From Pseudomonadota bacterium (GTDB lineage: Bacteria; Pseudomonadota; Gammaproteobacteria; GCA-001735895), in contig JADFMY010000001.1 in assembly GCA_022563685.1 (NCBI GenBank), forward strand, positions 10,707-74,706: a stretch of DNA of 64,000 nucleotides, read 5' to 3'. Positions 5,593 through 40,095 of the stretch are shown in pieces (position 1 is the first letter of the stretch; each line of letters starts with the position of its first letter). The position numbers and the translations under genes are program-made. Under the pieces are notes generated by a model. The model saw only the letters and a program-made list of their open reading frames with translations, did no database searches and was not told the DNA's origin.

Positions 5593-5601
5593 GGTGAGGG
5601 G

Positions 5602-8635: not shown

Positions 8636-8643
8636 AGCGTGGT

Positions 8644-10812: not shown

Positions 10813-10838
10813 GATTAATGGTTGCCCCCTTTTAAAGA

Positions 10839-10970
10839 TTACTGGCCGAAAAATAACCAGTAAGAAAATAAGTAAAGCACGACAAGAATATTGATCGCAG
10901 CACCGGCAAGTACAAAATAATCGAACCCGGTAAGCTGCTGGAACCAATGTTGTTGCGGGTTCTGTTTCAT
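10839..10970 (-). CDS. small hydrophobic peptide (43 aa, one TM helix)
   Basis: MKQNPQQHWFQQLTGFDYFVLAGAAINILVVLYLFSYWLFFGQ. It fills the gap between two operon genes on the same strand. I recognise no family. Confidence 0.35.
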   Translation of the reverse strand: MKQNPQQHWFQQLTGFDYFVLAGAAINILVVLYLFSYWLFFGQ

Positions 10971-10992
10971 CAATTCGCTAACCGCCCGGTTG

Positions 10993-11757
10993 TTATTTTT
11001 TAAAGCTGAAATCAACGGTTTGTGTCGCACCGGCAGATACCGTGGCTTTGCCCTTCTGGGTACCGAGCGTACCATGAAAAGCCATCACTTTGTAACTGCC
11101 CGCGGGAATATTGTCGATGCTGTAAGTGCCATCTTCGGCGACCTGTGCGTAATAGGGATTCTTTGCAACGAAAATAAATCCGTGCATAAATTCATGCGCG
11201 TCGCATTCGATCTTCATTGCTACGCCACGCTTGAGTTTGACTTTTTTATTTATCGTACCTTTATCGGGCTGGCTAATATTCATCACCGTCTTTTTAGCCT
11301 TACCGATAATTTCGTAGGTATGTATGTTATGCAACACCGGGTCTTCGTTGACAATGGCGACATTGTTATCGTTATGCATTATTTGCGTGAAAGGCTGAAA
11401 TTTGCAGCCCTGTTGCAAGATTGTCGCATCCCTTTGCGAATCGTCGAAAGCCTTGCCCTGTTTGACTTTATCGAGGTAGACCACCACATCGGTGAGGCGA
11501 CCGCTATTGACCCTGACATAATCGATCGATCGATTACCCGATCCACAGACATCGTTGTCTTTGGCGATTTTAAAAACCACAGGTGCCGGAACCTGCCCCG
11601 GATAAAACACCTTGCCACTGATGCTACCACCGTCGACAACGTCGATGACTTTATATTTGGCGGCCATAGCATTCTGGCTACCAGTAATGGCCAGAATCAG
11701 GCCGCTAACAATAAAAAAATTTCTTACCACAGGAATTCCCCTTCTAGTTTCATTCAA
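10993..11757 (-). CDS. secreted cupredoxin-like protein with a C-terminal carboxypeptidase-regulatory-like beta-sandwich
   Basis: Signal peptide (FFIVSGLILAITGSQNAMA). C..H..M-type patch CDAHEFMHG. C-terminal AEDGTYSIDNIPAGSYKV...TVDFSF is typical of CarboxypepD_reg folds. ATGA overlap with the HEAT gene. Confidence 0.6.
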   Translation of the reverse strand: MNETRRGIPVVRNFFIVSGLILAITGSQNAMAAKYKVIDVVDGGSISGKVFYPGQVPAPVVFKIAKDNDVCGSGNRSIDYVRVNSGRLTDVVVYLDKVKQGKAFDDSQRDATILQQGCKFQPFTQIMHNDNNVAIVNEDPVLHNIHTYEIIGKAKKTVMNISQPDKGTINKKVKLKRGVAMKIECDAHEFMHGFIFVAKNPYYAQVAEDGTYSIDNIPAGSYKVMAFHGTLGTQKGKATVSAGATQTVDFSFKK

Positions 11758-14180
11758 TGTCTGGATGCGGATTGATCGGCTGTGAAGCGGTACATCTCTT
11801 CCAGCATTTCAATCACAAATCGTCGCTCATAACTGCTAGTCAAATCTTTTAATAGCTGAATCAGTTTTTCGGTAGCCTGAACCGGTGCGATGTCTTTCAG
11901 GATCAGTGCCATATCACGGGTTCTACCGCCCTGATTACTAACCGCAGATTTGATTATTTGTTCTATGGCCCTGTCGATCAGCTGCTGTTGCTGGTTTATT
12001 TCATCGTGCAATAGACAGCGTTTAATATTTTTTACCGCACTGTAGCGTACACCGCTCTCACTATCTTCGAGGCAATCGATTAAGCTTATGAACCACTCGC
12101 TGAGCGACGGTGGTAACTCTGGAACATGCGCATTTTTCAGCAACTCGTCGCCATCGAGCATCAAGTCTGTAATCGATTGAATAGCCTGGATCTTCAATGC
12201 CGCCCGACTATGATCGAGTGCGGTGATTAGAATCGGTATCGCAGCGCGATTGCGTATCGCTGCCAGCGCTTTCATACAGGCGAGTTTTAAATCCCATTGT
12301 TCGTTGTGGAATTGAGTCACCAGCCCTCCAAAGGCATACTCTATGCCCGGAGTTTTTGGGTTTGCGATTGCAATCTGTGCTATCGATTCAGCCGCGCAAG
12401 TGCGTAATTTGCAATCCTCGGCGTTTAACGCCGATAGCAGACTGTTGATGATGCGCGTGGATTTCTCTTCGCTTAAATGCCCCGGTAAACCGGACAGTAT
12501 TCTGGCTGCCAGACGTCGTACATCGCTTGCTACGGAGACATCTTCTTTTTGATCGAATAACCATTCGCTGCGTACAATATTATCCTGTACCAAATCACGG
12601 TATTCATCGAGCGATGGGTCGGGATCCTGATCTATTGCCGGTTCGTTATTCATCTGTTTGAGAGATTCTTCTACCTGCTGATTATCCTGCAGGATCGATT
12701 CCAGCGTCGACATTGCTTCGACAGCCTGATCATCGCTGGATTCCTGTTCCTCCGGGGTTATTTTCGCCTCTGGTTCAAGCCTGCCCGGATTTGCGCTATC
12801 GACGATTGAAGCGACTTCAATTTCCAGTACAACCCGGCCATTGAGTGTCTGGTTTACAATATCTATAGGCGTGGAGTGCGTATCTTGATCCAGGTTAACT
12901 TCGTCCAGGTTTTTCTCCAGGGACATTAAGGCCTGCAAGGTAGTGAGCCTGATGCTGCTATCATTATGGTTGATCAGGCTTGTCATAATCCGCGAAACCT
13001 TGACATTCCAGCGGCATAACTGTGCCAGAATGTCAATACAACTGGTTATAATCTGACTGGATAATTTAGGTCGCAGTATTAACTGTATGAGTTGAGCCTG
13101 GGCCTGTTCGGGGTTAGATAACTTGAGCAGCAAGGGGATTGCCGCCAGAATCACCTTTTCATTCTTATCATTCAAGGCCGACAGAATTTGGTCGCTTAGC
13201 TGATCCTGGTCGAGTTTGGTAGCGGTCGATTGCAGAGATTGCAGATAGGCCGCTCTGACATCGGCATCGGGGTCTTTCAATAGTCGTTGGCTGACGGCTA
13301 TAGGTGTGCTTTTTTCGCCCGCTATTTCCGATTTAACCATGAGGCTCAGATCGTTATATGCCAGAATGGCCGCCTGCCGCACTTTTTCTGAACGATCTTT
13401 CTTGAGTAGTTCTATCGCGCGCAGATATTGGCCTGCTTTTCGATCAACCAGTGCCTGCAGGGCGTTAAGGCGCACTTCTTCTGAACTATCGGTGAATGCA
13501 GAAGCAAGCGCCTTGAGTGATTCTGACGAATTCGAAAACGATAACTCGTGAGCCGCCCGCCGACGTGTCTGGGCTGAGGCCGACTTAAGCTGATCGATAA
13601 CAATTTGTTCACCCTCGCCACCAATACTGACCAGGGATTTTAAAATATCGTGTTCGATATCGAGCACGTCATCGCTACTCAGTAGCTGTTGTAATACTGG
13701 AGTCGCCTGCTCTGCCTTCATCTGGCCCAATGAAATAACAGCCTGACGCTGCATATCCCACCAGTCATCCCAGTCTTCGTTACTGTCGATGATCATATCT
13801 TCTGGATGGTGTTCGGCTAATTGCAGCAATACAGGAATACTTGCAGGGCTTTTGATTTCGCCCAGGGCTTTCACGATAGCGGTCTTTAATTCACCATCTG
13901 GGTCATGTTCCAGCGATTCCAGCAATTGCGGAACAACATGAAGCGCATTCAGCTTTCCAAGTGCTTCTGCGGCATCGATGCAGACATCGATGTCTTCATC
14001 CCTGAGTCTTAATACCAGGTCATCGATCGCCTCTACCGCTCCAATCGAGCCCAGTGCCCGGCTGGCATTACATTTATCCACTTCGTCTCCAGCATCGAGC
14101 AAGTCACGCAAACGATGTATGACCATAGCCTTACACTGGCTGGATGGATCGCTGGTTTGATTGTTATCTGCTACTTGCAC
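11754..14180 (-). CDS. HEAT-repeat (PBS-lyase-like) protein, 808 aa
   Basis: Repeated ~30-aa units such as ASRALGSIGAVEAIDDLVLRLRDEDIDVCIDAAEALGKL and ELKTAIVKALGEIKSPASIPVLLQL run along the whole protein. The start is GTG 14180 and is uncertain. Confidence 0.75.
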   Translation of the reverse strand: MQVADNNQTSDPSSQCKAMVIHRLRDLLDAGDEVDKCNASRALGSIGAVEAIDDLVLRLRDEDIDVCIDAAEALGKLNALHVVPQLLESLEHDPDGELKTAIVKALGEIKSPASIPVLLQLAEHHPEDMIIDSNEDWDDWWDMQRQAVISLGQMKAEQATPVLQQLLSSDDVLDIEHDILKSLVSIGGEGEQIVIDQLKSASAQTRRRAAHELSFSNSSESLKALASAFTDSSEEVRLNALQALVDRKAGQYLRAIELLKKDRSEKVRQAAILAYNDLSLMVKSEIAGEKSTPIAVSQRLLKDPDADVRAAYLQSLQSTATKLDQDQLSDQILSALNDKNEKVILAAIPLLLKLSNPEQAQAQLIQLILRPKLSSQIITSCIDILAQLCRWNVKVSRIMTSLINHNDSSIRLTTLQALMSLEKNLDEVNLDQDTHSTPIDIVNQTLNGRVVLEIEVASIVDSANPGRLEPEAKITPEEQESSDDQAVEAMSTLESILQDNQQVEESLKQMNNEPAIDQDPDPSLDEYRDLVQDNIVRSEWLFDQKEDVSVASDVRRLAARILSGLPGHLSEEKSTRIINSLLSALNAEDCKLRTCAAESIAQIAIANPKTPGIEYAFGGLVTQFHNEQWDLKLACMKALAAIRNRAAIPILITALDHSRAALKIQAIQSITDLMLDGDELLKNAHVPELPPSLSEWFISLIDCLEDSESGVRYSAVKNIKRCLLHDEINQQQQLIDRAIEQIIKSAVSNQGGRTRDMALILKDIAPVQATEKLIQLLKDLTSSYERRFVIEMLEEMYRFTADQSASRH

Positions 14181-14563: not shown

Positions 14564-14579
14564 TGGCAGGATATTTGCA
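14564..14579 (+). promoter_or_regulatory. sigma-54 (-24/-12) promoter of the CydA-like/cytochrome c operon
   Basis: TGGCAG-gatat-TTGCA against the consensus TGGCAC-N5-TTGCA. It lies 39 nt upstream of the first micro-ORF ATG. Confidence 0.65.
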
Positions 14580-14617: not shown

Positions 14618-14767
14618 ATGAGTGGACAAAACGACGAGCTCGATAACGGACCGGACGATGATTCGGTCACCTGGGGCCCGATATTGTTTTACGGCACCCT
14701 CATCGCCGGGTTGGTATTTTTCTGGTGGATGGTGATCTACTCGCATGGCGTATCACCCACACACTAA
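14618..14767 (+). CDS. micro-ORF, 49-aa single-TM peptide (not in the ORF track)
   Basis: ATG preceded by gaaggcggga. MSGQNDELDNGPDDDSVTWGPILFYGTLIAGLVFFWWMVIYSHGVSPTH has an acidic head and one TM helix. It lies directly behind the sigma-54 promoter. Confidence 0.4.
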   Translation: MSGQNDELDNGPDDDSVTWGPILFYGTLIAGLVFFWWMVIYSHGVSPTH

Positions 14768-14798
14768 GCACATTTCGAAATGCTGGTAACCACCGTAT

Positions 14799-14927
14799 AT
14801 GAATAAAACGCTCACTCACTGGCTGCTGGCAGCGGTCATAGTCATCGGTCTGTTTTACGGTTTGAACCACATCGTCATGTCTATGCAAGGGTTACCGCTC
14901 AATCTGAATTTAACTCCGATACAGTAA
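14799..14927 (+). CDS. micro-ORF, 42-aa single-TM peptide (not in the ORF track)
   Basis: MNKTLTHWLLAAVIVIGLFYGLNHIVMSMQGLPLNLNLTPIQ. Its stop abuts the CydA-like ORF. Confidence 0.4.
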   Translation: MNKTLTHWLLAAVIVIGLFYGLNHIVMSMQGLPLNLNLTPIQ

Positions 14928-14982
14928 TGTGTGTCCTGAACTGGTGGATAAAGATGCACTCTGGTCTGGTGGAAATTTAACA

Positions 14983-16839
14983 ATGAGCAGAAATCCAGAC
15001 AATATCCGTAACAAATACCTGTATTTAGCCCTGTTATTGTTGTTATTTCTATCGGCGACAGCTCTCATATCACTGGCCATATCAGGCAAAGTTTACGCAA
15101 CTATAGAGACAGGTTCCACTGCAGCAGAATCTGTTGCATTGTCGGCAGAAAATGCCAGCAGCCGAATACCCTTCCCGGCGCCGAATTTAAAACGCGAAGA
15201 CTACCCGCGTATGGGTATTAGCAGCCGTTCAATTGTCTGGGTCATTGCGCAGATGCATCTGTTTTTTGCTGCGTTTGTACTCGCGGTACCAATCTTCGTT
15301 CTGGTAATCGAGTGGATTGGTGTCAGGACCGGTGACGAGCGTTACGACGATATGGCGCATGAGTGTATGAAAATCAGCATGACCGCCTACTCGATAACCG
15401 CGCTATTCGGTGGCACACTGGTATTCGCACTGTTTCTGCTGTACCCGCAATTCATGGCTTACATGATGCATGTGTTTGATTCGCAGGTACTGGTATACGC
15501 ATTTCTGTTCTTTGCCGAAAGCGCCTTCCTCTATCTCTATTACTACAGTTGGTATGCCTGTCGATACGGCAATAAAAAATGGGTTCATCTGACCCTGGGC
15601 CTGATGCTGAACATTACAGGTACCACCTTGCTACTCCTCGCCAATGCCTGGGTCACTTTTATGATGGCACCGTCGGGGGTCGATGATGCGGGCGTGGTCA
15701 CCGGCAGTATCTGGGAAATTATGCGCGGCCCGTTGTGGAACCCGATAAATTTACACCGTTTTATTGCCAATATTGCATTTGGTGGGGCGGTTATCGGCGC
15801 CTATGCGGCTTACAAGTTTCTTTCATCCACCGACCCACGCGCCAGAGCGCATTACGACTGGATGGGTTACACCGCCAACTTTATCGCCATCCTCGCATTT
15901 TTACCCTTACCGTTTGCCGGCTACTGGCTGATGGCCGAGATCTACGCCTACTCCCAGCAAATGGGAATTACCGCGATGGGCGGAATACTGGCCTGGTTGT
16001 TTATCATACAGGCGGTATTGATCGGTACTATTTTGCTGGCGGGTAATTATTATCTCTGGTCGGGTATGTCGCGTACCCTGGGATCTGAGCGTTATACCTG
16101 GATGATCAAATATATCGCCATCGTACTGGTGACCTGCTTCCTGGTCTGGGTGACGCCGCATACGCTGATTTTGAGCGCGTCCGAAATGAGGCAACTGGGC
16201 GGCAGCCGTCATTACATTCTGGGGCCGCTCGGTATCATGCCGGCGAAAAATATCGCGGTTAACCTGATGTTGATCTTCACCTTTCTGTCGTTCCAGATAT
16301 ACCGTCGTGCCGATAAGGAAGTCACCGTTAGCTGGGCCGGTTTCGGCAACACGTTGATGGTTTGCATCTATGTCGTCGCGATAGTTAACATCGTATTTGC
16401 CGGTGTGTATTACGGTTATTTCACCAATACCGTATACAAGGTCGGTTCCAGCGTCATGCAGGTAGTATCGACGCTGGTGGTTATCGGTGCTGGAATCACG
16501 ATAGATTCCCTGATGTTCAAGGGTGCTAAAAAACTACCCTCCGAATGGGGCAAGGTATCCAACCGCGCTCAATACGCGCTTTTCGCATTACCGATCACCT
16601 TTACCTGGTTGATGGCCCTGATGGGTTACGTGCGCTCGTCGGTCAGAACCAACTGGCATGTGTACACGGTGATGAAAGACAACTCCCCCGATAATTTCAT
16701 TCCCACCATCGGTTATGCCGGCAACATGATGACCCTCGTCACCGTGCTATTCCTGTTGTTTGTACTGTTTATATTCTGGATTGCCTCTTTGAGCGACAAA
16801 AAGCAACCAAAGCCAGCCTTTCTGGCCGGTGGTGATTAA
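14983..16839 (+). CDS. cytochrome bd subunit I (CydA)-like membrane protein, no CydB partner
   Basis: Matches E. coli CydA blocks: AQMHLFFAAFVLAVPIF ~ TAMYHFLFVPLTLG (His19 region), FFAESAFLYLYYYSW ~ FFLESTFVGLFFFGW (Glu99), LLLLANAWVTFMM ~ LWILVANGWMQNP, and NPINLHRFIANIAFGG ~ NPVAQVKFVHTVASGY. The ATG at 14983 with ggtgga upstream is preferred to the GTG at 14929. Confidence 0.75.
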   Translation: MSRNPDNIRNKYLYLALLLLLFLSATALISLAISGKVYATIETGSTAAESVALSAENASSRIPFPAPNLKREDYPRMGISSRSIVWVIAQMHLFFAAFVLAVPIFVLVIEWIGVRTGDERYDDMAHECMKISMTAYSITALFGGTLVFALFLLYPQFMAYMMHVFDSQVLVYAFLFFAESAFLYLYYYSWYACRYGNKKWVHLTLGLMLNITGTTLLLLANAWVTFMMAPSGVDDAGVVTGSIWEIMRGPLWNPINLHRFIANIAFGGAVIGAYAAYKFLSSTDPRARAHYDWMGYTANFIAILAFLPLPFAGYWLMAEIYAYSQQMGITAMGGILAWLFIIQAVLIGTILLAGNYYLWSGMSRTLGSERYTWMIKYIAIVLVTCFLVWVTPHTLILSASEMRQLGGSRHYILGPLGIMPAKNIAVNLMLIFTFLSFQIYRRADKEVTVSWAGFGNTLMVCIYVVAIVNIVFAGVYYGYFTNTVYKVGSSVMQVVSTLVVIGAGITIDSLMFKGAKKLPSEWGKVSNRAQYALFALPITFTWLMALMGYVRSSVRTNWHVYTVMKDNSPDNFIPTIGYAGNMMTLVTVLFLLFVLFIFWIASLSDKKQPKPAFLAGGD

Positions 16840-17714
16840 TGCTATCAACCAGCGGGAAAATGAACCATCGGCAACGCGGCTCTATCCTGCTTAAAATCAT
16901 ATTGTTCAGTATTTCACTGACGCTGGTGTTTACCCTGTTCGCTAATCTTTTACCCCAGGTAGAGGGCGAGGCGCCGGTAGAACAGCAAATCGACCCTGGC
17001 GCCCTGACTGCGGACAGCTTCGTCGCACTCGGCGAAAGCACTTTTACCGGTAAAGGATCCTGCACCCTGTGTCATAACAACATGGGCCGCGCACCCGATA
17101 TCCTGCAACTGAATATGGTCGATATCTCGGCGCAAAGACTACAAGATGATCGATATCAGGGAGATGCAAACTCGGTTGAAGACTACCTGCGCGAGTCGAT
17201 GCTATCGCCGGGTGCGTACGTGGTTAAAGGCTATGGCAAAAAAGGGACTAAGGATACCGAGTCGCCGATGCCTGAAGTCGACAAGGCGCCTATCCTGCTC
17301 AACAACATCGAAATTGATGCCGTGATCGCATTTATGCAGGCGAAAGACGGCCACGAAGTCACGGTCGCATTACCCGAAGCTTTGCCAGTACCGGGCGAAG
17401 AAATCAAGGCACAGGCCGCACCGGTTACAGCGGTGTCAGCCCCGGCAGAAAACGCCGAAGTAGCTTTGGGTAAGTATATCTGTACCGCCTGCCATAGCCT
17501 GGCGGGCAGCGTATCTCCAGTCGGTCCTGATCTCAATACGGTGGGTGACCGGTTAAATCGAGACCAGATCAGTCAAAGTATCATCGACCCGAATGCAGTC
17601 ATTGCCGAGGGTTTCTTTGCCGGCGTAATGCCAGCCGATTTCGCCGGCAAAATGACAGTCAGCGAACTTGCGATGATCGTCGACTTCCTGGCGAATCAAA
17701 AGGCAAATCAATAG
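16839..17714 (+). CDS. membrane-anchored dihaem cytochrome c
   Basis: N-terminal TM helix and two CxxCH motifs (CTLCH, CTACH). The start overlaps the previous stop (TAATG). Confidence 0.8.
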   Translation: MLSTSGKMNHRQRGSILLKIILFSISLTLVFTLFANLLPQVEGEAPVEQQIDPGALTADSFVALGESTFTGKGSCTLCHNNMGRAPDILQLNMVDISAQRLQDDRYQGDANSVEDYLRESMLSPGAYVVKGYGKKGTKDTESPMPEVDKAPILLNNIEIDAVIAFMQAKDGHEVTVALPEALPVPGEEIKAQAAPVTAVSAPAENAEVALGKYICTACHSLAGSVSPVGPDLNTVGDRLNRDQISQSIIDPNAVIAEGFFAGVMPADFAGKMTVSELAMIVDFLANQKANQ

Positions 17715-17716
17715 AG

Positions 17717-20128
17717 ATGCGTATTTCGGCATTTTACCAGGCGGTACTGGTCATCGTAGTTGCTTATCTCATCTTCGATAACGCCTTCCCACCGCTATTA
17801 CCGAAGACGTTGATGATTCAGTACATGATCATTACGGTTGTCGGCGTACTGCTATATTTCTCGTTCGACGACGACCGTTGGGCGGAGTTTTTAGCACCGA
17901 TAAGGTCGGTACTGAGAGACGATGATAAAGGCTTATTGCGCGGATTCTTCCTGCTGGCAATCCCGGGACTGATCGGATGGGTGACTTATGAAGCCATTAA
18001 GCCTACATTAGATTCGCCGATTGAATTACGCCAGGTGCACCCTGCCCCACCGTCAAGCTTCAGGGTATTTAACCAGACTTACAACCTCAGCAAACTGGAA
18101 AACCCGGTACGCGACGAGATCGCCAGTCAATACCAGGAAGATCCTGACGCCGCGATGCAAACCTATACCGACGCAGTCGAAGCTGGCCGCGATGTGTATT
18201 ATCAAAATTGTTTCTACTGTCATGGTGACCTGCTCGATGGACAGGGGCCTTTTGCCGATGGTTTTACCAATCCCCTGCCGATCAATTTCCAGGACGTGGG
18301 TACCATTGCGCAGTTAGAAGAGACTTTTTTATTCTGGCGCATCACCACCGGCGGTCCAGGTTTACCCAGGGAAGGAACGCCGTGGAATTCAGCGATGCCG
18401 GTGTGGCATGAATTTCTCGAAGAGGAAGATGTGTGGAACGTCATCACATTTTTGTACGACTATGTGGGTCAGGTGCCGCGTATCTGGGACCGGGATAAAT
18501 CAAAAATAGCCACTGCCATTAAAGAAGCGCGGGTCAAACAACGTTCGACGATGATGGGGGGCGATCTTTATCAATATCGTTGCGCCGCCTGCCATGGCGT
18601 GGAAGGTCTGGGCGACGGGGTTGCCCCCGAGCGTCTGTATCCCAGGCCACGCGACTTCAGTTTGGGCCTGTTCAAATACAAAACTACGCCGGGCGCTTTG
18701 CCCCCCAGCGATGAAGACCTGTTCAATACCATCAAACACGGTTTGACCGGAACAGGGATGCCCGGCTGGGGCAGAGTGATGCGCGATGACCAGATCGAAA
18801 GCCTGATCCCGGTGCTTAAGGGATTTGACATGACAGCAACCTGGTCTCCGGAAGATGCAGAGGATGAAAACTTCGACGACGAAGGTCGTTACACAAAAAC
18901 TGACTTTATCTCGATTACTGAAACTGAACCGGTTGATGGAATGATCGACTATAGCCCTGATTCCATAGCCAGGGGCAGGGAGGTTTTTAACAAGGCCTGT
19001 AACAAATGCCACGGAGATAGTGGTAGAGGCAATATCACCTCGGGCAAGAAACTCGACGACGACTGGGGTTATCGTATCTGGCCTCGCGATCTGACCAAAG
19101 CCTGGACTTATCGAGTATCTGAGGTAATCGACACGGATACCACCCATGCCAGAACGCAAACCATTCAGAGAATTTACCAGCGCCTGTCGATCGGCATTAC
19201 CGGCACACCGATGCCCGCACACCGCGCAGTTGAGGAAGGCAACAAGGATCCGATCGAGCTTGAGGATCGTTGGCACGTCGCCAATTACGTCTATTCCCTG
19301 CGCGAACAGGCAAATTCATTACCTGGCGAAAGCGACGTCCTGTCGGCAATCAAGTTGGAACAATTGCCTGGGGATGTAAATTCCGAACTGTGGAATCAGG
19401 CGACCCCGGCCACCTTCAGGCTGGTACCGAACATCATCAAAGGCGAGCGCCTTTTCACCCCGTTGTCGGATGCCGTAACGGTACGCGCAGTGTATACCCG
19501 GGATGAGATTTCCTTTCTGCTGGAACTGAATGACCGTACCGACAGTCGTCCCGGTGAAGAAGAGTCCGAAGGCATACAGGATGAAGAGCTGACCCTGCAC
19601 CCGGATGCACTGGCACTACAGTTTCCCAAACAGGATGCGTTCGAAACATCCCCAGTAGTCGTGAAACCCCTGTACCGCCATGGAGATAAAAACCATGCAA
19701 CCACGATCTGGTACTGGAATGCCGGTAGCGTCGAGCCGCCGATTCCGGCCAGCGCAGCGTTAATAGACGCCAATGGACCCGATCAAAAACTGAGGTTTCG
19801 CGAGGCTGGAGATTTGAAAGCCATCGGGGTATGGAACCAGGGCCAATGGAAAGTCATGTTCACACGTCCAAGAAAAGTTCATGATGAGGGTGACCTCAGC
19901 TTCGACGAGGGACGCTTCATCCCGATCTCTTTTGCCAACTGGGACGGCAGCAATGGCGAAGCTGGCTCGAAACATACCCTGACCACCTGGTACTGGCTGA
20001 TATTGCCACCGCAAACAAATTTGACTTATGTCTTAGGTATTCCGCTACTGATGATTATACTGTCTATCATGGCTGGTTTGATAGCGGTGCGATCCCAGCG
20101 AAAACTGTCGAAATCGCGTCATGAGTAA
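17717..20128 (+). CDS. fusion protein: N-terminal TM helices, three cytochrome c domains, an EB_dh/DOMON-like haem-b domain and a C-terminal TM anchor
   Basis: CFYCH, CAACH and CNKCH motifs. The C-terminal ~250 aa (TTIWYWNAGS, GQWKVMFTRPR, SFANWDGSNGEAGSKHTLTTWYWLIL) resemble gamma subunits of type II DMSO-reductase enzymes (EbdC/NxrC-like). The final helix is IPLLMIILSIMAGLIAV. Confidence 0.7.
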   Translation: MRISAFYQAVLVIVVAYLIFDNAFPPLLPKTLMIQYMIITVVGVLLYFSFDDDRWAEFLAPIRSVLRDDDKGLLRGFFLLAIPGLIGWVTYEAIKPTLDSPIELRQVHPAPPSSFRVFNQTYNLSKLENPVRDEIASQYQEDPDAAMQTYTDAVEAGRDVYYQNCFYCHGDLLDGQGPFADGFTNPLPINFQDVGTIAQLEETFLFWRITTGGPGLPREGTPWNSAMPVWHEFLEEEDVWNVITFLYDYVGQVPRIWDRDKSKIATAIKEARVKQRSTMMGGDLYQYRCAACHGVEGLGDGVAPERLYPRPRDFSLGLFKYKTTPGALPPSDEDLFNTIKHGLTGTGMPGWGRVMRDDQIESLIPVLKGFDMTATWSPEDAEDENFDDEGRYTKTDFISITETEPVDGMIDYSPDSIARGREVFNKACNKCHGDSGRGNITSGKKLDDDWGYRIWPRDLTKAWTYRVSEVIDTDTTHARTQTIQRIYQRLSIGITGTPMPAHRAVEEGNKDPIELEDRWHVANYVYSLREQANSLPGESDVLSAIKLEQLPGDVNSELWNQATPATFRLVPNIIKGERLFTPLSDAVTVRAVYTRDEISFLLELNDRTDSRPGEEESEGIQDEELTLHPDALALQFPKQDAFETSPVVVKPLYRHGDKNHATTIWYWNAGSVEPPIPASAALIDANGPDQKLRFREAGDLKAIGVWNQGQWKVMFTRPRKVHDEGDLSFDEGRFIPISFANWDGSNGEAGSKHTLTTWYWLILPPQTNLTYVLGIPLLMIILSIMAGLIAVRSQRKLSKSRHE

Positions 20129-20169: not shown

Positions 20170-20319
20170 ATGACGAATCACAAGGGTATGGCAGAATTTC
20201 TGCCTTTGAATAGGGCGGTATTAACGGTTTCCGACAGTCGTGCTCGAGCCGAGGCTCCAGTCATGCGGTATCGGAAAAAGTTACCTGTTAAGGGGGCCAG
20301 TCATGAGTTGCTGTGACCA
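20170..20319 (+). pseudogene. moaB: moaB/mog-like N-terminal remnant
   Basis: The 49-codon ORF MTNHKGMAEFLPLNRAVLTVSDSRARAE... resembles the E. coli MoaB N-terminus (TEFIPTRIAILTVSNRRGEE). It then loses similarity and runs out of frame into the moeA start. Confidence 0.4.
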
Positions 20320-21583
20320 GGCAGACTTGATGCCGTACGACCAGGCAATCGCCGAATTGCTGTCAGTAGCGAAACCTATTACAGAATCAGAAATAGTACC
20401 GGTGGCAGGTGCTCTTGGACGCGTGCTGGCTGAAGATGCGGTCTCCAGCCTCGATGTGCCACCAGCGGATAACAGTGCTATGGATGGTTATGCGCTGCGA
20501 TATTCAGACCTCACCAACGCGGGCTTGACCACACAAGGTCGAGTCGTGTTACCGATCAGTCAGCGAATCGCCGCTGGCGTAGTGCCCGAAGCGCTAAACC
20601 CCGGTACTGTTGCCAGAATTTTTACCGGCAGCGAAATCCCCGAGGGGGCAGACACCGTCATCATGCAGGAGCAGTGCCGGGCATTAAACGGTACCGATGG
20701 TGAAGGGAAAGAAAACGGTCAGACGGTTGAACTGCCTGTCGACATAAACCCAGGTGATAACATTCGCCTTAAAGGTCTGGATATCACCGCGGGTTCGGTT
20801 ATATTAAATCGTGGCCACAAATTGCTACCGCAGGATCTGGGTTTGCTGGCTTCCATAGGCCTCGCCGAAGTTAAGGTATATCGACGCTTAAAAGTGGCGA
20901 TCCTCTCGACCGGTGATGAAATCGTCGAACCTGGGCAGGCTTGCCCGGCAGGCCATATTTATAATTCCAACCGTTACACGCTAGCCGGACTAATCGATGC
21001 GATGGGCATGGAGCGAGTGGATATGGGTATAGTACCCGACGATCCTGAAGCAACCGAAGCAGTATTACGACAGGCCGCGGAACTGGCCGACTGTATCATT
21101 ACCACCGGCGGCGTATCGGTGGGGGAAGAAGACCACGTCAAGGCCTGTGTCGAGAAATTGGGTGAATTGCAATTATGGCGCCTGGCAATTAAACCAGGAA
21201 AACCGCTCGCTTTTGGCCAGGTGCTGGATAAACCTTTTTTTGGATTACCCGGAAACCCGGCGGCGGTTTTTGTTACCTTTGCAATGGTAGCTCGACCTTA
21301 TTTATTGAGATTCCAGGGTTGCGAAAATGGCCTCCTGCCCATGACCCTCACGGTTCAGGCAAACTTTAGCCGCAACAGGCCAGGCAAACGCCAGGAATAT
21401 CTGCGCGCGCGTCTGGATATTTCCGAGCGAGGAGTCATGAGCGCCAGCTTACATACCAATCAAAGCAGTGGCGCACTTTCGGCAGCCAGTTGGAGTAACG
21501 GTTTTGCGGTCCTGCCGATTGACCAGCTAATCGAAAACGGCGACAGCGTGAAATTTATTCCCTATAGTGAATTGTTTGCCTAG
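20303..21583 (+). CDS. moeA: molybdopterin molybdenumtransferase MoeA
   Basis: ALGRVLAEDAVSSLDVPPADNSAMDGYALR, ITTGGVSVGEEDHV and KPGKPLAFG are canonical MoeA blocks. The ATG at 20303 with aaggggg upstream is preferred to the track start at 20240. Confidence 0.9.
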   Translation: MSCCDQADLMPYDQAIAELLSVAKPITESEIVPVAGALGRVLAEDAVSSLDVPPADNSAMDGYALRYSDLTNAGLTTQGRVVLPISQRIAAGVVPEALNPGTVARIFTGSEIPEGADTVIMQEQCRALNGTDGEGKENGQTVELPVDINPGDNIRLKGLDITAGSVILNRGHKLLPQDLGLLASIGLAEVKVYRRLKVAILSTGDEIVEPGQACPAGHIYNSNRYTLAGLIDAMGMERVDMGIVPDDPEATEAVLRQAAELADCIITTGGVSVGEEDHVKACVEKLGELQLWRLAIKPGKPLAFGQVLDKPFFGLPGNPAAVFVTFAMVARPYLLRFQGCENGLLPMTLTVQANFSRNRPGKRQEYLRARLDISERGVMSASLHTNQSSGALSAASWSNGFAVLPIDQLIENGDSVKFIPYSELFA

Positions 21584-21607
21584 ATCAGAGGCTCCCTAAA
21601 TAACGAT

Positions 21608-22840
21608 ATGCTCAAGTTGACAGTCCCTGACGAGGCCAACCGTACGGTGCCCCTGTTTCGTTTGGCGTTTCGCCCTTTCTTCCTCGGCGGCGTCTTATTT
21701 TCACTACTGGCACTGAGCCTGTGGGCGGTTTTCTGGATTACGGGATTGGACTGGGTTCCTTATGGTGGCTGGATCTGGTGGCACGCCCACGAAATGCTGT
21801 ATGGATTTGTGGTCGCCATTATTGTCGGTTTCCTGTTAACGGCGGTGCAAAACTGGACCGGGCAGGAGAGTATTACCGGCTGGCCACTGGCGGGCCTGTT
21901 TACACTCTGGTTGTTGCCTCGTGGCTTACTGCTTTACCCGATTGCACCCGTCGAATCGCTGCTTCCCTGGTTGGATCTGGCATTCCTGCCTGTCGTCGCC
22001 TGGGTAATGGGCAGAATTCTTTGGCGCGCTCGACAATTTGTCAATCTTGTTTTTGTGCCGATATTGCTATTGCTGACTATTGCTAATGCTCAAATGCACT
22101 GGGCGGTGGTACAGGGTGATGCCGTGTTATTCAGGGATGCCGCTGAAAGTACCATTTTTATAATTGTGCTTGTAACGGTAGTGATGGGTGGCCGTGTGAT
22201 TCCGTTTTTCACAGCCAGTAGTACGGTCACACCCAGCGTGTTGCCCAACCCGGTGATCGAACTGCTGTCTTTGGGATCGGTCGCGCTGCTGGCTTTGTTG
22301 CATTTATTCAGTCTGATCCAGCATCTATCTTCGCTATTAGTAGCAGGCATATTTTTGGTGGCGGGATTGGGTCATTTGCTACGCTTTTTACGCTGGCGTC
22401 CATGGATTACCTACAAAGAACCCTTGCTTTGGTCGCTACACCTCGCCTATCTGTTTATTGCGCTAGGTTTTATTCTGTGTGCATTGCGTTATGCAGGTTT
22501 AAGCCTGGATGTGTTGAGTAGATTTACAGCTTTGTACCCCACCATTTTGCACAGTTTTACGCTCGGGGGCATGGGTTTGTTGATTCTGGCGATGATGTCC
22601 CGGGTTTCGCTGGGTCACACGGGTCGCCCCCTGGTGGTGAGTCCCTGGGTTAGTTTCAGTTTTCTATGTATTATTGCGGCCTATGTCAGTCGTGTCTGGC
22701 TGCCGTTACTATCGCCCGCCACCAGTCATTACTCAAGCTACCTGCTCAGCATTATTTTTTGGTTGTCTGGTTACGGAATATTCATATTTGTCTACCTGCC
22801 TGTCCTCAGCAAACCACGTGTAGATGGTCAACCGGGTTAA
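21608..22840 (+). CDS. nnrS: NnrS family haem/copper membrane protein
   Basis: FRLAFRPFFLGG...WHAHEMLYGF signature and ~12 TM helices. Confidence 0.85.
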   Translation: MLKLTVPDEANRTVPLFRLAFRPFFLGGVLFSLLALSLWAVFWITGLDWVPYGGWIWWHAHEMLYGFVVAIIVGFLLTAVQNWTGQESITGWPLAGLFTLWLLPRGLLLYPIAPVESLLPWLDLAFLPVVAWVMGRILWRARQFVNLVFVPILLLLTIANAQMHWAVVQGDAVLFRDAAESTIFIIVLVTVVMGGRVIPFFTASSTVTPSVLPNPVIELLSLGSVALLALLHLFSLIQHLSSLLVAGIFLVAGLGHLLRFLRWRPWITYKEPLLWSLHLAYLFIALGFILCALRYAGLSLDVLSRFTALYPTILHSFTLGGMGLLILAMMSRVSLGHTGRPLVVSPWVSFSFLCIIAAYVSRVWLPLLSPATSHYSSYLLSIIFWLSGYGIFIFVYLPVLSKPRVDGQPG

Positions 22841-22920
22841 TGACTGATGATAGCGAAAGCCAGGGAATCTCTGACTAAATCTGGGCGAATCATATTTTCA
22901 TCGTTGCTCGCTCATAAGTG

Positions 22921-23316
22921 CTATTCAATGGGATAACCATCTGCCTGCCACTGCCGCATGTGACCCTCAAGCTCACGAAGATGCTTGAACCCGGCCTGCG
23001 ACAGGAGTGATTGTGCAAAACTTGAGCGAGGCCCTACCCAACAATAAACCACAATCTCCCTGTCCTGGTGTGACATCAACTCAGAGAGTCTGTAGCGAAG
23101 TTTCCTATGGGGTATGTTGACCGCACCGGGAATATGTCCGCTCGCGAACTCTTCGGGCGTGCGGACATCGAGAATCAGGGGAGCCTCACCAATATTGATG
23201 CGATCAAGCAACTCCGACGGAGTAATGGCGTTGCCTGCCTGCACCAGGGTAGATGCAAGAGTCAAAGCTACAAGTGCAGTGATGATTAAACTGAATTTCC
23301 AAACATAGAGTCGCAT
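22921..23316 (-). CDS. periplasmic rhodanese-domain sulfurtransferase
   Basis: Signal peptide. LILDVRTPEEFASGHIPGAVNIP, and the active-site loop CWVGPRS. Confidence 0.85.
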   Translation of the reverse strand: MRLYVWKFSLIITALVALTLASTLVQAGNAITPSELLDRINIGEAPLILDVRTPEEFASGHIPGAVNIPHRKLRYRLSELMSHQDREIVVYCWVGPRSSFAQSLLSQAGFKHLRELEGHMRQWQADGYPIE

Positions 23317-23830
23317 CTGAATACCTCGCTGTTGGTTATTAACTCAAGACGCTTAACAGTAAATTTAAGAGGCCGGTGGCCTTTTAATAATTATTAGCGA
23401 GCGGCAATTGAATTCTTTTAGCGGAAAAAATAAAATGCGTAACTCATTGATGGCCAGGATTTATGTTCCATGCGTTTTACTAAATTCCATTAGCGTGACG
23501 GATGGCCCTCTATTTTCCAGAATTTCGATAAAAAGCTGACACGGTAGTGGCTCACCGCTGAGGCATGGACTCGTACTGTGAATTATAAACAATCTCCCTT
23601 TCTCCTTTCCCTCTCAAGCTATATGAAGGTTCGCCGTTATAATCTGAGTATTCCATTATTTACCCGAAAAAGCGACTAGCATCAGAAAACACGCAGGTAC
23701 AACCTCAGGCACCAGGGTCCCAGGCAACCATTAAACCTGAGCTGATATTTCAATGCCAATATGACTTATGTTAATGTTCGATTCACTCGATTCAGTAACA
23801 TTGTTGATGAACGAAAACCAGGAGTGAGAT

Positions 23831-24022
23831 ATGAACATTCTGACAGGGGTAATAATAGGCGCTCTGTTATTGACCGTTGCTGTACTTGGCACTGGAATCT
23901 GGTCAATGATTCGTGGGGGGGAGTTCGATAAGAAGCATTCAACCGAGTTGATGTTTGCCCGGGTTGGTATGCAGGCGGTTACATTATTGCTTCTACTTTT
24001 AGCTATTTACCTGGCAAATTGA
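23831..24022 (+). CDS. twin-transmembrane-helix small protein (HIG1-like)
   Basis: 63 aa with two TM helices joined by GGEFDKKHSTELMFARVGMQ, which resembles the HIG1 R-x-R-x3-Q loop. ggag RBS. Confidence 0.6.
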   Translation: MNILTGVIIGALLLTVAVLGTGIWSMIRGGEFDKKHSTELMFARVGMQAVTLLLLLLAIYLAN

Positions 24023-24283: not shown

Positions 24284-24351
24284 GTACCCAATAAGTAATT
24301 AAACAGTCCCCTCTGAAACACAGAGGTTGCTAACTATTGGAGGTAAGCATT

Positions 24352-25479
24352 ATGAGTCCAAAGCTGACCAGGCGTGGCCGACTGATGATAGCAGTATCCG
24401 GGTTGAGTCTTGCATTCGCAGTGTCGACTGGCGCAGTGTCGACGGACCTGGCTGCGGAAATCGGACCGCTTCCCGAGCTAAAAACAGACTTGCTGAAAGC
24501 CGAGCTGGGAAAGAGGCTTTTTTTCGATAAACGAATCTCTGGCGATGCGGGTATTGCCTGCGCGAGCTGCCATCAGCCGGAGCACGGATTCAGTCACCCC
24601 GATGCATTGTCGCCTGGTTATCCGGGTAATAAGCATTTTCGCAATTCACCTACCCTGATCAACGTCGCACACAAAAAAGTATGGAATCACGACGGCCGTC
24701 TTGGCACCAACCTGAACGATGTGACGCGCGGCATGCTCACCGAATCCTACATCATGAACATGGATATGCGCATCATGCAGGAACGCCTGAAGCAAGATCC
24801 TGTTTATGTGCGTATGTTCAAGGAAGCAGGTTATGGTGAACCTTCCAACGGTAGTGTGCGTAAAGCCATTCCTGAATACCTGAAGACACTTACTTCGCGT
24901 GGTGCGCCATTTGACAAGGCTAAGATGTCGCGTTCGGCTAAACGCGGCATGAAGCTGTTTACCGGCAAAGCCGGGTGCATCAGCTGCCATAGCGGCGCCA
25001 ACTTCACCGATGGGCAGGCGCATAACACCGGAGTCCCGGAAAACTGGGACGTATTTCTCGACCCGGCGCGTCACCAGGCGTTCCTCGCCTACGGCCTGTT
25101 TATGGGGGTTGAAAATCTCTTCAGCCTGAAGCGCGACCCGGGCGCCCATGTACAGTCGCATAAGGCAGACGGTTCCGATATGGGCAAGTTCATGACGCCG
25201 ACATTACGCGAGCTCGCCTACACCGCTCCCTACATGCATAACGGCATGATCAAAACACTGGATGAAGTGGTGGAGTTCTACAATCAGGGCGGTGGTCGGG
25301 ATTCGAACAAGAGTGCGTTGATGAAACCGCTGAAGCTGAGCCAGGCCGAAAAGAAAGATCTGGTTGAATTTCTGCAAGCGTTATCTGGCGAAACTCTAAG
25401 CGGCAAGGAGTTTGTGTGGGATCAGCCCTACCCGGCTGAATACGAAGCTATCGCCGACTGGCGCAACGTTCGAAACTAG
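24352..25479 (+). CDS. dihaem cytochrome c peroxidase (CCP/MauG family), IdrP-like by context
   Basis: Signal peptide. CASCHQPEHGF and CISCHSG haem motifs. C-terminal TPTLRELAYTAPYMHNG block. The ATG at 24352 behind ggagg is preferred to the TTG at 24337. Confidence 0.85.
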   Translation: MSPKLTRRGRLMIAVSGLSLAFAVSTGAVSTDLAAEIGPLPELKTDLLKAELGKRLFFDKRISGDAGIACASCHQPEHGFSHPDALSPGYPGNKHFRNSPTLINVAHKKVWNHDGRLGTNLNDVTRGMLTESYIMNMDMRIMQERLKQDPVYVRMFKEAGYGEPSNGSVRKAIPEYLKTLTSRGAPFDKAKMSRSAKRGMKLFTGKAGCISCHSGANFTDGQAHNTGVPENWDVFLDPARHQAFLAYGLFMGVENLFSLKRDPGAHVQSHKADGSDMGKFMTPTLRELAYTAPYMHNGMIKTLDEVVEFYNQGGGRDSNKSALMKPLKLSQAEKKDLVEFLQALSGETLSGKEFVWDQPYPAEYEAIADWRNVRN

Positions 25480-25494
25480 GTTTGGGAGTAGCTA

Positions 25495-26691: not shown

Positions 26692-27269
26692 GCACAGAAT
26701 TGAAAGTGGGAAAAGAGAAATCGGCGGCGCATGGCAAGTGCATGATGACCCGACGCGGCTTCCTCATGACCAGTGGTGCCGCAACCGCGATGGGTACGGT
26801 GGGTATATCGCTATTCCCGGGTACGGTTAACGCATTCTCATCGACTGCTCAGGTGGTTGGTTATCCACGTAAGAAAATCGCCAGCCTGAGGCAGTTGAAG
26901 GATAACCAGCCGTTTGATTTTAGCTACCCGGATGAGGTTGGAAACAACCAGTGCATGCTGGTCAAGATGGGCGGTGCCCAGGCCGGTGGTGGTGTTGGTA
27001 AAAAGAAAGACATAGTTGCTTTCAGTTACCTCTGCACGCACCAGGGTGGTCCGCTGCAGGGCAGCTATAAAGTAGTGGGCGACCAACGTGTACTGGGGCA
27101 GTGCCCATTTCACCTGTCAACCTTTGACCTGCGCCGACACGGCATCATCGTCTCCGGTCAGGCTTATGAAAGCCTGCCGCAGATTTTGCTGGAGATCGAT
27201 GGCGACGACGTCTACGCCGTGGGTATGTTAGGGCTGGTTTTCGGCCGCAATACAAATTTGAAATCCTAG
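26688..27269 (+). CDS. Tat-exported Rieske [2Fe-2S] small subunit of the AioB/IdrB type
   Basis: Twin-arginine motif TRRGFLMTSGAA. Rieske ligands CTH (CTHQGGPL) and CPFH (CPFHLSTFD). ATGA overlap with the preceding gene. Confidence 0.85.
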   Translation: MSTELKVGKEKSAAHGKCMMTRRGFLMTSGAATAMGTVGISLFPGTVNAFSSTAQVVGYPRKKIASLRQLKDNQPFDFSYPDEVGNNQCMLVKMGGAQAGGGVGKKKDIVAFSYLCTHQGGPLQGSYKVVGDQRVLGQCPFHLSTFDLRRHGIIVSGQAYESLPQILLEIDGDDVYAVGMLGLVFGRNTNLKS

Positions 27270-27281
27270 GAGACACAACAC

Positions 27282-30959: not shown

Positions 30960-30975
30960 TTTACCAGGCAAATAG

Positions 30976-31647: not shown

Positions 31648-31648
31648 A

Positions 31649-40088: not shown

Positions 40089-40095
40089 ACTACTT

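Follow-up and report, generated by a model that had tools for sequence, protein, structure and literature searches.

A CydB-less, bd-like CydA homologue of probable OR-N2 type encoded with c-type cytochromes in sulfur-oxidising Gammaproteobacteria

The stretch of DNA analysed here (64,000 nucleotides, referred to as the window) comes from a metagenome contig (ENA ERZ27267440) and carries, at 14618-20128, an operon whose central gene encodes a homologue of the cytochrome bd protein CydA. This gene is followed not by cydB but by genes for c-type cytochromes, one of them joined to an EB_dh haem-b domain, and the operon probably belongs to the OR-N2 subfamily of the bd superfamily. Five consecutive open reading frames (ORFs), all on the forward strand, span 14612/14618-20128, with 14612 an alternative start of the first:

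14618-14767, +, micro-protein 1, 49-51 amino acids (aa), one transmembrane (TM) helix, motif WGP.LF..FFWW..IYSHGV
14799-14927, +, micro-protein 2, 42 aa, one TM helix, motif FYGL[DN]H.IMSMQGLPLN.[DN]LTP
14983-16839, +, putative OR-N2-type bd-like CydA homologue, 618 aa, about 14 helices including an N-terminal signal/anchor helix, PF01654
16839-17714, +, membrane-anchored dihaem cytochrome c, 291 aa, Pfam Cytochrom_C / Cytochrome_CBB3
17717-20128, +, trihaem-c/EB_dh protein, 803 aa, PF13442 in three stretches, PF09459 at 62.6 bits

The CydA-like and dihaem cytochrome c genes overlap by 1 nucleotide (nt) at 16839 and a gap of 2 nt (17714/17717) precedes the last gene, in keeping with the preliminary description of this locus, which had the following genes overlapping or abutting the first; because of this 1-base overlap and 2-nt spacing, the last three genes are translationally coupled. 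Gene calling on the source contig starts the CydA-like protein at the ATG at 14983, and 618-aa homologues align with the product at 100% coverage; a GTG at 14929 would extend the ORF to 636 aa.

Homology to CydA, with a PF01654 profile search as the check proposed for it, was confirmed: PF01654 (Cyt_bd_oxida_I) matches the protein at 66.9 bits (E 1.6e-18, cut-off 26.2 bits), the alignment running over residues 99-620 of the 636-aa ORF and profile positions 2-412 of 418. Sequence matches in the PDB are to CydA chains only, and the ten best PDB fold matches of an AlphaFold2 (AF2) model with a predicted local distance difference test score (pLDDT) of 66 are all CydA (E 3e-7 to 8e-5), the match to CydB being far weaker (E 0.04 versus 3e-7). 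The model has about 14 helices, in agreement with hydropathy, which gives one N-terminal helix and about 13 more. The extra N-terminal helix and loop noticed earlier are present (residues 10-38, then about 40 residues), and this hydrophobic helix ends in VYA/T, resembling a signal peptide.

A profile search with PF02322 found no CydB among about 45 large ORFs of the window, the operon proteins included, so the reported lack of cydB after the CydA-like gene holds for the window ORFs scanned. At least 246 GTDB species genomes carry a CydA-like relative, and 80 of these, mainly Gammaproteobacteria, were retrieved; among 81 related loci, none (0/81) had a second CydA-like gene within +/-10 kb. A hidden or fused CydB, considered as a candidate, is ruled out by these two results and by the weak CydB fold match. 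The window gene stands alone, unlike the arrangement in Nitrospirales, in which OR-N1 and OR-N2 occur together.

The bd superfamily has been divided into qOR, OR-C and OR-N (Murali, Gennis & Hemp, bioRxiv 10.1101/2021.01.16.426971), and OR-N2 is described in that work as having 14 helices and as encoded in operons with multiple cytochromes c and an ebdC homologue, often with no other cydA-like gene. The reference residues listed there for OR-N2 (H99, Y183, E190, Y197, Y199, H213, H269, M430/N434, S563 and W569) have as counterparts in the window protein H92, Y172, E179, Y186, Y188, H202, H258, M419/N423, S552 and W558, the offset being a constant 11 from Y172 onward and the residues being invariant or nearly so in 81 relatives.

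Alignment to solved structures clarifies several of these positions. H92 aligns in HMMER with the helix-1 His of 5doq_A and 9r2g_A, the equivalent of E. coli H19, and is invariant in 81 close and 10 distant relatives, while H202 is equivalent to E. coli H126. Two residue assignments of the preliminary description had to be revised. The Glu of its FFxES block, read there as Glu99, is E179 of FFAES and aligns with Geobacillus E108 (E. coli E107), the E99 position (Geobacillus E101) being occupied by an invariant Tyr, Y172 (HMMER, 5doq_A); and the His186 equivalent, thought to be displaced by about one helical turn, is H258 of NLHRF, the counterpart of H269 in the OR-N2 reference, and falls without any shift on the canonical haem b558 His of 9r2g_A (M. 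smegmatis CydA, HMMER). S552 falls at the E445 position by way of S563 of the OR-N2 reference. In the haem-ligand scoring that had been suggested, the His19 and His186 equivalents are present, the Met393 equivalent is assigned by spacing, and Glu99 is replaced by Tyr. H92, H202, H258, M419, S552 and an extra His, H559, are invariant across ten relatives at 41-54% identity. The HMMER alignments to solved CydA stop at query residue 234 or 320, before the Q-loop equivalent, and the AF2 model places further helices where the canonical Q-loop would stand.

Because PF01654, the PDB matches, the signature spacings, the helix count of about 14 and the operon content agree, the operon is assigned, on sequence evidence, as a gammaproteobacterial member of the named OR-N2 subfamily. 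In PMC3578206, Nitrospina, Nitrospira and Kuenenia are described as sharing a 'conspicuous bd-like oxidase' of 14 helices, three of which replace the Q-loop; its neighbours are cupredoxins, cytochromes c of the mono- and dihaem kinds and an alternative NxrC, and the paper calls its role enigmatic. This paper and bioRxiv 10.1101/2021.01.16.426971 confirm the earlier statement that CydB-less bd-like CydA proteins lie beside NxrC-type EB_dh proteins and cytochromes c in Nitrospira, Nitrospina and anammox bacteria, and in both the quinol site is given as absent from OR-N.

The genes after the CydA-like gene encode the two cytochrome partners foreseen in the preliminary description. The 291-aa protein is a membrane-anchored dihaem cytochrome c, with CxxCH at 75 and 215, conserved M144 and M264/M272 and one N-terminal anchor, and is present in 81/81 gammaproteobacterial loci and in 75 of 80 distant loci (a set from a metagenome scan seeded with distant relatives, of which 12 are well flanked). 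The 803-aa protein is, as stated, a fusion of TM helices, three c domains, an EB_dh domain and an anchor: it has CxxCH at 165, 289 and 428, conserved M227, M348 and M499, an EB_dh haem-b domain at about 558-753 (its PF09459 score, the proposed check, exceeding the cut-off of 33.3 bits) and, by hydropathy, three N-terminal TM helices and a C-terminal TM anchor. Its haem domains are probably periplasmic, because three N-terminal helices give the required odd number, and it is present in 77/81 close and 67/80 distant loci. The partner cytochromes match CcoP/FixO-type models and each c domain has a conserved Met about 60-70 residues after CxxCH; since this Met can be placed as the sixth ligand, all five c haems are probably high-potential His/Met haems. 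In four relatives (P0121, P0123, P0135 and P0165) the CydA-like protein is itself fused to cytochrome c.

The EB_dh domain aligns to EbdC (2ivf_C, E 4.6e-6) and NxrC (7b04_C), and the 803-aa protein scored 68 bits with TIGR03477 (DMSO_red_II_gam), below the cut-off of 170. The axial ligands of haem b in EbdC are Met108 and Lys201. The Met108 column holds a His, H655 (RHGD, versus RMGD in NxrC), and a second His, H753, lies on or one residue after the Lys201 column, depending on register; both are invariant in 60 orthologues, and K752 at the Lys column is only 73% conserved (K/L/R). Since H655 and H753 stand at the ligand columns, a bis-His haem b is predicted for the EB_dh domain of the window clade. 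A bis-His haem throughout the family was rejected: distant clades mostly keep the first Met, and one distant locus (L090) keeps Met and Lys. No alpha or beta subunit of a type II DMSO reductase is encoded in the operon, and the adjacent molybdoenzyme is of AioAB type.

Both micro-ORFs upstream of the CydA-like gene are real genes, with homologues of each detected by tblastn in 77/81 loci. Their motifs can also be rendered as WGPKLF..FFWWLLIYSHGV for micro-protein 1 (alignment of 74 distinct sequences) and FYGLDHxIMSMQGLPLNxDLTPAQ for micro-protein 2 (77 distinct sequences). Micro-protein 1 has no Pfam or NCBIfam match, and the micro-proteins have no detectable similarity to CydX. The idea that they are universal OR-N2 subunits was dropped, the motifs being found upstream of 0/68 distant OR-N2 genes; they are probably clade-specific or too diverged to detect outside the clade.

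The OR-N2 family is abundant in sulfur-oxidising Gammaproteobacteria. Carriers among the 80 retrieved genomes include Sedimenticola, Ca. Thiodiazotropha, Parabeggiatoa/Halobeggiatoa/Thiomargarita/Venteria, Thiolapillus, Sulfuricaulis, Motiliproteus and Aestuariirhabdus. CydA-like relatives in the protein database run into the thousands, the best 120 of them all 73-97% identical, and 179 cluster representatives of a library clustered at 50% identity match at E <= 1e-30. When the window proteins were compared by tblastn with the 81 loci, the CydA-like gene was present in 81/81, at 70-88% identity, and the five-gene layout in 77-81 of the 81 genomes, a sign of strong purifying selection.

Conservation reaches far beyond 14618-20128. 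A divergent operon is encoded upstream:

11754-14180, -, HEAT-repeat protein, first gene of the divergent operon, 808 aa, PF13646 HEAT_2 at 152.7 bits, PF03130 HEAT_PBS
10993-11730, -, secreted cupredoxin, 245 aa, Sec-type signal peptide, C-terminal CarboxypepD_reg-like beta-sandwich
8644-10812, -, Usp-PCP_red protein, 722 aa, PF00582 in two stretches, PF08369 in three
7352-8635, -, AhbD/NirJ-like radical SAM/SPASM-PCP_red protein (rSAM-PCP_red), 427 aa, PF04055, PF13186, C-terminal PF08369
5931-7355, -, HemY-type protoporphyrinogen/coproporphyrinogen oxidase homologue, 474 aa, TIGR00562 proto_IX_ox at 238 bits (cut-off 98), PF01593
5602-5934, -, one-helix protein, last gene of the divergent operon, 110 aa, called on the source contig

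The HEAT protein, whose repeats are PBS-lyase/CpcE/NblB-like (bilin-lyase type) with the CpcE/NblB models below their cut-offs, is present in 62/81 loci and 2/12 well-flanked distant loci, and the cupredoxin in 63/81 gammaproteobacterial and 9/12 well-flanked distant loci. When counts are corrected for contig ends, the two genes occur together in 53 of the 57 loci with at least 5 kb upstream. The cupredoxin found no match in a sequence search against the PDB and was identified by fold search alone, with the top 50 Foldseek PDB matches of its AF2 model (pLDDT 89, predicted template modelling score 0.83) showing a cupredoxin fold without exception (NirK domain, pseudoazurin, plastocyanin, amicyanin and CuA). 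It has an amicyanin-like type-1 copper motif (H..C-x2-H-x2-M), and H134/H137, C176, H179 and M182 are invariant in 39 sequences. The modelled fold identifies the 245-aa protein as a probable blue-copper electron carrier, with copper binding predicted.

The remaining divergent genes are also widely kept. The Usp-PCP_red protein, whose start is the conserved M46 in line with the gene call, is found in 58/81 loci, and Usp/PCP_red in 8/12 well-flanked distant loci. The rSAM-PCP_red protein (51/81 and 8/12) keeps CxxxCxxC and the SPASM cysteines, and its best NCBIfam scores, 308 bits with NirJ2 and 282 bits with the haem b synthase AhbD, fall short of the 500-bit cut-offs. The HemY-type oxidase is present in 46/81 loci and 3/12 well-flanked distant loci. 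The 110-aa one-helix ORF, which has no family match, overlaps the HemY-type stop by 4 nt and occurs at the same position in 17 other loci. Aestuariirhabdus sp. LZHN29 (L073, NZ_JBNIEU010000004.1, RefSeq) has a CydA-like protein 73% identical to that of the window and iodate reductase-type (idr-type) genes 271 bp downstream; homologues of the HEAT protein and micro-protein 2 were not detected at this locus, a naturally reduced cassette in a host that is probably easy to grow.

The association extends to distant lineages. In L088 a CydA-like/cytochrome c fusion at 51% identity is followed 30 bp on by an 843-aa Usp-PCP_red gene, and in L092 (46% identity) the operon order is EB_dh-cytochrome c, Usp, PCP_red, cytochrome c, CydA-like. 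The dihaem cytochrome c and EB_dh are each present in 12/12 well-flanked distant loci, which show at least four gene orders, the accessory genes always running in the same direction as the CydA-like gene. Usp/PCP_red, rSAM-PCP_red and the cupredoxin accompany it in three arrangement types, and that the neighbourhood has outlasted such reshuffling is good evidence that these genes are functionally linked. Not every member of the widest family has the cassette: in P0137 and P0145 (32-38% identity) the CydA-like gene is stand-alone or its context is too short to show the cassette. The accessory genes are not mentioned in the main text of Murali et al. (bioRxiv 10.1101/2021.01.16.426971), nor, cupredoxins apart, in the bd-like, cupredoxin and EB_dh passages of PMC3578206, and a literature search for PF08369/PCP_red in an OR-N2 context returned nothing relevant.

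Two distant loci differ in composition. In L090 (GCA_900491425.1, UOGE01000106.1, 10001-21563) the distant OR-N2 operon, at 42% identity, encodes a CydA-like protein fused to cytochrome c, then two Proton_antipo_M (Mrp/Nuo antiporter-like) proteins, an EB_dh-cytochrome c, a dihaem cytochrome c and a cytochrome b, and may be a proton-pumping variant of the OR-N2 complex. L082 (JGI 3300046788, 3953-12229), a relative at 44% identity, has a Nitrospirota-like arrangement with a gene context unlike that of Gammaproteobacteria, the order being OR-N1-like CydA, cytochrome c, Rieske, cytochrome b, a 334-aa unknown protein, OR-N2-like CydA and cytochromes c.

Features that may govern expression in the window lineage are:

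14564-14579, +, sigma-54-type promoter, TGGCAG-N5-TTGCA with GG-N10-GC, near consensus, about 35-40 bp upstream of micro-ORF 1
2656-5592, -, PAS/dCache sensor kinase (Pfam)
1125-2537, -, sigma-54-dependent response regulator (Pfam)

A motif of the sigma-54 class lies 5' of micro-ORF 1 in 20/74 related loci, about one being expected by chance at a background rate of 0.036 per kb, and in this lineage the OR-N2 operon would be transcribed from this promoter. The kinase is kept at the far end of the divergent operon in 9/81 loci, the nearest relatives only, and it and the sigma-54 response regulator are candidate regulators for this lineage, with a presumed tie to the promoter. A scan for sigma-70 promoters and terminators scored no better than shuffled sequence, and an Rfam search of window 10-25 kb gave no match.

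The products of the OR-N2 operon probably form one physical complex, because the genes overlap or abut, the partners are conserved and the CydA-like protein is fused to cytochrome c elsewhere. The preliminary description had offered either a quinol:cytochrome c module or an oxidase/reductase; the evidence leans towards the latter, because of the CcoP/FixO-like partners with their conserved Met, the CydA-like fusions and the separate bc-type modules elsewhere. In L082 and L090 the OR-N2 genes have a Rieske/cytochrome b module as neighbour, and quinol oxidation would therefore be supplied separately there. The retained E107 and H126 equivalents and the existence of aerobic Nitrospirales with OR-N types only favour a terminal reductase, of which O2 is the simplest substrate; N. 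lenta and similar cultivated aerobic Nitrospirales have no oxygen reductase except OR-N types (PMC12342949). We give about an even chance to the OR-N2 complex, whose function is unproven, being a bd-type terminal reductase that receives its electrons from cytochrome c or cupredoxin and most likely reduces O2.

In such a complex the five c haems, the EB_dh haem b and the secreted cupredoxin would pass electrons to the b558-equivalent haem (H258/M419), from which they would go to a remodelled active-site haem pocket comprising H92, Tyr in place of E99, E179, H202 and Ser in place of E445, with H559 nearby. There an oxidant, most probably O2, would be reduced with cytoplasmic protons, so that the complex would act like a cbb3 oxidase built on a bd scaffold. 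Usp-PCP_red, rSAM-PCP_red, the HemY-type oxidase and the HEAT protein would supply, tailor or insert its haem, or regulate the complex. Canonical bd oxidases tolerate sulfide, and a version fed by cytochrome c would suit sulfur oxidisers at oxic-sulfidic interfaces.

Several points weigh against this terminal reductase. CydB, which is part of the haem d/b595 environment, is absent, as is, across the 81 loci, the OR-N1 CydA with which OR-N2 is thought to pair in Nitrospirales. The canonical E99 and E445 are replaced, M419 is assigned to the M393 equivalent only through its spacing to the published OR-N2 table (reference M430), the confidence of the AF2 model is moderate (pLDDT 66), and the roles of the accessory genes are read from domain names and synteny alone. 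To our knowledge no OR-N enzyme has been purified and there is no biochemistry for any of them. The O2 affinity of OR-N is given as unknown in a 2025 survey of Nitrospirales (PMC12342949), and the family also occurs in strictly anaerobic anammox bacteria, where an O2 role is unlikely and where a quinone-linked role was proposed (PMC3578206).

That last point leads to the alternative that survives best, though we think it rather unlikely: a quinone-linked module like alternative complex III, wiring the quinone pool to periplasmic enzymes. The bd-like subunit would meet quinone at a new site, and the c haems, EB_dh haem and cupredoxin would connect to an idr-type molybdoenzyme and peroxidases, electrons running from quinol to iodate or peroxide or, in the other direction, from an arsenite-type oxidation to quinone. 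The enzymes concerned are encoded downstream in the window:

24337-25479 and 25495-26691, +, two dihaem cytochrome c peroxidases, PF03150
26688-27269, +, Rieske subunit with a twin-arginine translocation (TAT) signal, PF00355, arsenite_ox_S above cut-off
27282-29978, +, AioA-like molybdopterin subunit, PF18465 and PF00384, arsenite_ox_L above cut-off, 3Fe-4S domain

The nearest solved structures of the molybdopterin subunit are AioA, and it keeps the equivalents of A. faecalis AioA His195, Arg419 and His423, with Ser at Glu203; these substrate-site residues do not discriminate Idr from Aio. IdrA has been told from AioA by synteny with two peroxidases, with Sedimenticola thiotaurini named as an idr carrier (PMC8692401), and because two peroxidase genes adjoin it here, 24337-29978 is read as an idr-type block. 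S. thiotaurini (L035) carries the same OR-N2/idr supercluster. The peroxidases are found in 36/81 loci and the Rieske and AioA-like subunits in 31/81.

The main support for a quinone-linked module is that, with counts corrected for contig ends, 31 of the 39 loci with at least 6 kb of downstream flank have idr-type genes no more than 10 kb beyond the operon, across a gap of 271 bp to 6.3 kb that is often below 1.1 kb. This adjacency in sulfur oxidisers parallels that of nitrite oxidoreductase (NXR) and the bd-like protein in nitrite oxidisers and so supports a molybdoenzyme electron module; the homologous module adjoins NXR in nitrite oxidisers and anammox bacteria, and the role was proposed there (PMC3578206). 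EB_dh domains are electron-transfer subunits of periplasmic molybdoenzymes, and azurin-type cupredoxins partner arsenite oxidase (the NCBIfam name being 'arsenate reductase (azurin)'). However, 8/39 loci have no idr genes nearby, among them the closest relatives of the window with enough flank, and other lineages have idr-free cassettes. Quinol-binding features were not found in OR-N by the published analyses (bioRxiv 10.1101/2021.01.16.426971; PMC3578206), the alignments to canonical CydA stop before the Q-loop region, other lineages encode a separate Rieske/cytochrome b module beside OR-N2, and c haems read as His/Met suggest a high potential. In known iodate reducers the idr surroundings are poorly conserved and the model uses bc1 and cytochrome c551 (PMC8692401). 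The idr-type block is a frequent neighbour of the OR-N2 operon and at most a candidate partner.

A bd-like complex reducing or detoxifying an oxidant other than O2 at the remodelled pocket, such as NO, H2O2 or reactive iodine (for example HIO from the idr-type enzyme), is improbable in our estimation. It would account for the altered site, with Tyr for E99, Ser for E445 and the extra invariant H559, and for the frequent neighbourhood of an enzyme set whose proposed chemistry gives HIO, H2O2 or O2. Canonical bd oxidases show peroxidase, catalase and NO-handling side activities, and NnrS is encoded downstream on the window contig, in a region between the OR-N2 operon and the idr-type genes:

20240-24022, MoeA, NnrS, rhodanese (- strand) and a twin-helix HIG-type small protein

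MoeA-NnrS-rhodanese occurs on the window contig only (1/81 loci) and looks like a lineage-specific insertion, and nnrS, noted earlier as lying just downstream, is rejected as a functional partner. The cassette also occurs without idr in soil, freshwater and marine lineages, and no sequence feature indicates a specific alternative substrate. An ordinary cydAB quinol oxidase with its cydB overlooked, fused or dropped through mis-assembly, or a decaying pseudo-operon, has only the PF01654 match in its favour and is refuted by the absence of PF02322 from the operon and the scanned window ORFs, of a second CydA-like gene from 81 loci and of a CydB-grade fold match (E 0.04 versus 3e-7 for CydA), and by the same five-gene layout in 77-81 of 81 genomes with CydA-like proteins at 70-88% identity.

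For the terminal-reductase interpretation, the divergent operon raises the question of the cofactor. PCP_red is the C-terminal domain of BchB, and it caps the protochlorophyllide pocket in structures of the dark-operative protochlorophyllide oxidoreductase (DPOR). Three proteins of the divergent operon appear from their domains to point to tetrapyrrole chemistry. Usp-PCP_red and the radical SAM protein across phyla, joined in marine and gammaproteobacterial clades by the HemY-type oxidase and the bilin-lyase-like HEAT protein, could form a dedicated tetrapyrrole-tailoring and insertion pathway; that the OR-N2 active-site cofactor is in consequence a purpose-made haem, not ordinary b or d, is a tentative proposal with the balance of probability against it. 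If true, it would open, for the first time, a genetic route to the question of how bd-type oxidases gain a special haem.

The OR-N bd-like oxidases have posed a puzzle since 2010: many Nitrospira are presumed to use them as terminal oxidase, and in Nitrospina and anammox bacteria their place in the NXR cluster is unexplained. All these hosts are slow-growing and genetically difficult. The highly conserved module described here is found in sulfur-oxidising and heterotrophic marine Gammaproteobacteria, and because its carriers include an isolate with a RefSeq genome (Aestuariirhabdus sp. LZHN29) and genera that have cultured members (Sedimenticola and Motiliproteus), biochemical and genetic tests are realistic. 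The cupredoxin, Usp-PCP_red and AhbD/NirJ-like radical SAM protein provide a fuller parts list for reconstitution as well as raising the cofactor question, and the frequent idr-type pairing suggests a role for the module in iodine or arsenic cycling at low-oxygen, sulfidic interfaces.

Two further blocks follow the molybdenum subunit in the window:

30186-32770, ModABC
32844-42146, Calvin-cycle block (CbbO-like VWA protein, CbbQ, RuBisCO large chain, class II fructose-bisphosphate aldolase, phosphoribulokinase and fructose-bisphosphatase)

The Calvin-cycle block, to which a divergent LysR regulator belongs and in which no RuBisCO small-subunit gene was seen beside the large-chain gene, confirms that the host is an autotroph, as had been supposed; RuBisCO, CbbQ/O, phosphoribulokinase and fructose-bisphosphatase are all encoded at 32.8-42.1 kb. 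A second molybdoenzyme cluster (43087-48731, -; 49048-50310, -; 50686-54445, +) lies 23 kb from the OR-N2 operon on the opposite strand. Its products are a NarJ-like chaperone, a Mo-pterin subunit of 840 aa that contains an Fe4S4 domain and has PhsA/ArrA-like models as its best NCBIfam matches (none above cut-off), a 4Fe-4S subunit and a multihaem cytochrome of NapC/NrfH type (504 aa). After these come an IS110 transposase and then genes for a phosphonate-binding-like protein, a HAMP kinase and a sigma-54 regulator, in a layout like AioXSR/ArxXSR. The cluster may specify an enzyme of the Arx/Arr/Psr family.

Comparison with known systems places the window operon closest to the OR-N2 (NIDE0901-like) operons of nitrite oxidisers and anammox bacteria, with which it shares a 14-helix CydA homologue bearing the same signature residues and probably lacking the Q-loop and quinol site, cytochromes c with an ebdC/NxrC-like haem-b protein, cupredoxins nearby and an adjoining periplasmic molybdoenzyme. 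It differs from them in its sulfur-oxidising gammaproteobacterial host, in lacking an OR-N1 partner and NXR, and in a neighbouring molybdoenzyme of AioAB/Idr type with two peroxidases. Compared with OR-N2 elsewhere, the EB_dh protein is a fusion with three c domains and four anchors, both of its canonical ligand positions are occupied by His, and there are two clade-specific micro-proteins and a divergent operon for HEAT, Usp-PCP_red, rSAM-PCP_red and HemY-type proteins.

The canonical CydAB(X/S/H) oxidases (E. coli 6rko, Geobacillus 5doq) share with the window protein the first four helices, the H19 ligand, the E107/H126 channel and the b558 His, and both systems have small single-helix accessory peptides. 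The window operon lacks CydB and probably the Q-loop and the quinol site, has Tyr for E99 and Ser for E445, and adds five helices; its donors would be c-type cytochromes or cupredoxin, whereas that of CydAB is quinol. The cbb3 oxidase (CcoNOQP) is a functional analogue only: both consist of a membrane catalytic subunit, anchored mono- and dihaem cytochromes c that feed it and a small peptide, but the cbb3 catalytic subunit belongs to the unrelated haem-copper superfamily, and no CuB site is expected in the window protein, nor is proton pumping implied. OR-C1, of Desulfovibrio and others, is a comparable CydA homologue without a quinol site and with haem c as the point of electron entry, but OR-C proteins have 8 helices, c haems fused to CydA, a second CydA (C1b), a retained E99 and no EB_dh partner.

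The idrABP1P2 island of Pseudomonas sp. SCT and Denitromonas sp. IR-12 has the same Mo/Rieske/two-peroxidase block as the neighbours of the window operon; its published surroundings are poorly conserved, whereas in these sulfur oxidisers idr trails the OR-N2 operon in 31/39 loci. The OR-N2 kind of operon was thus already known, and the present results add to it an extended parts list, a His/His variant of the EB_dh domain, the pairing with idr-type genes and hosts that can be cultured.

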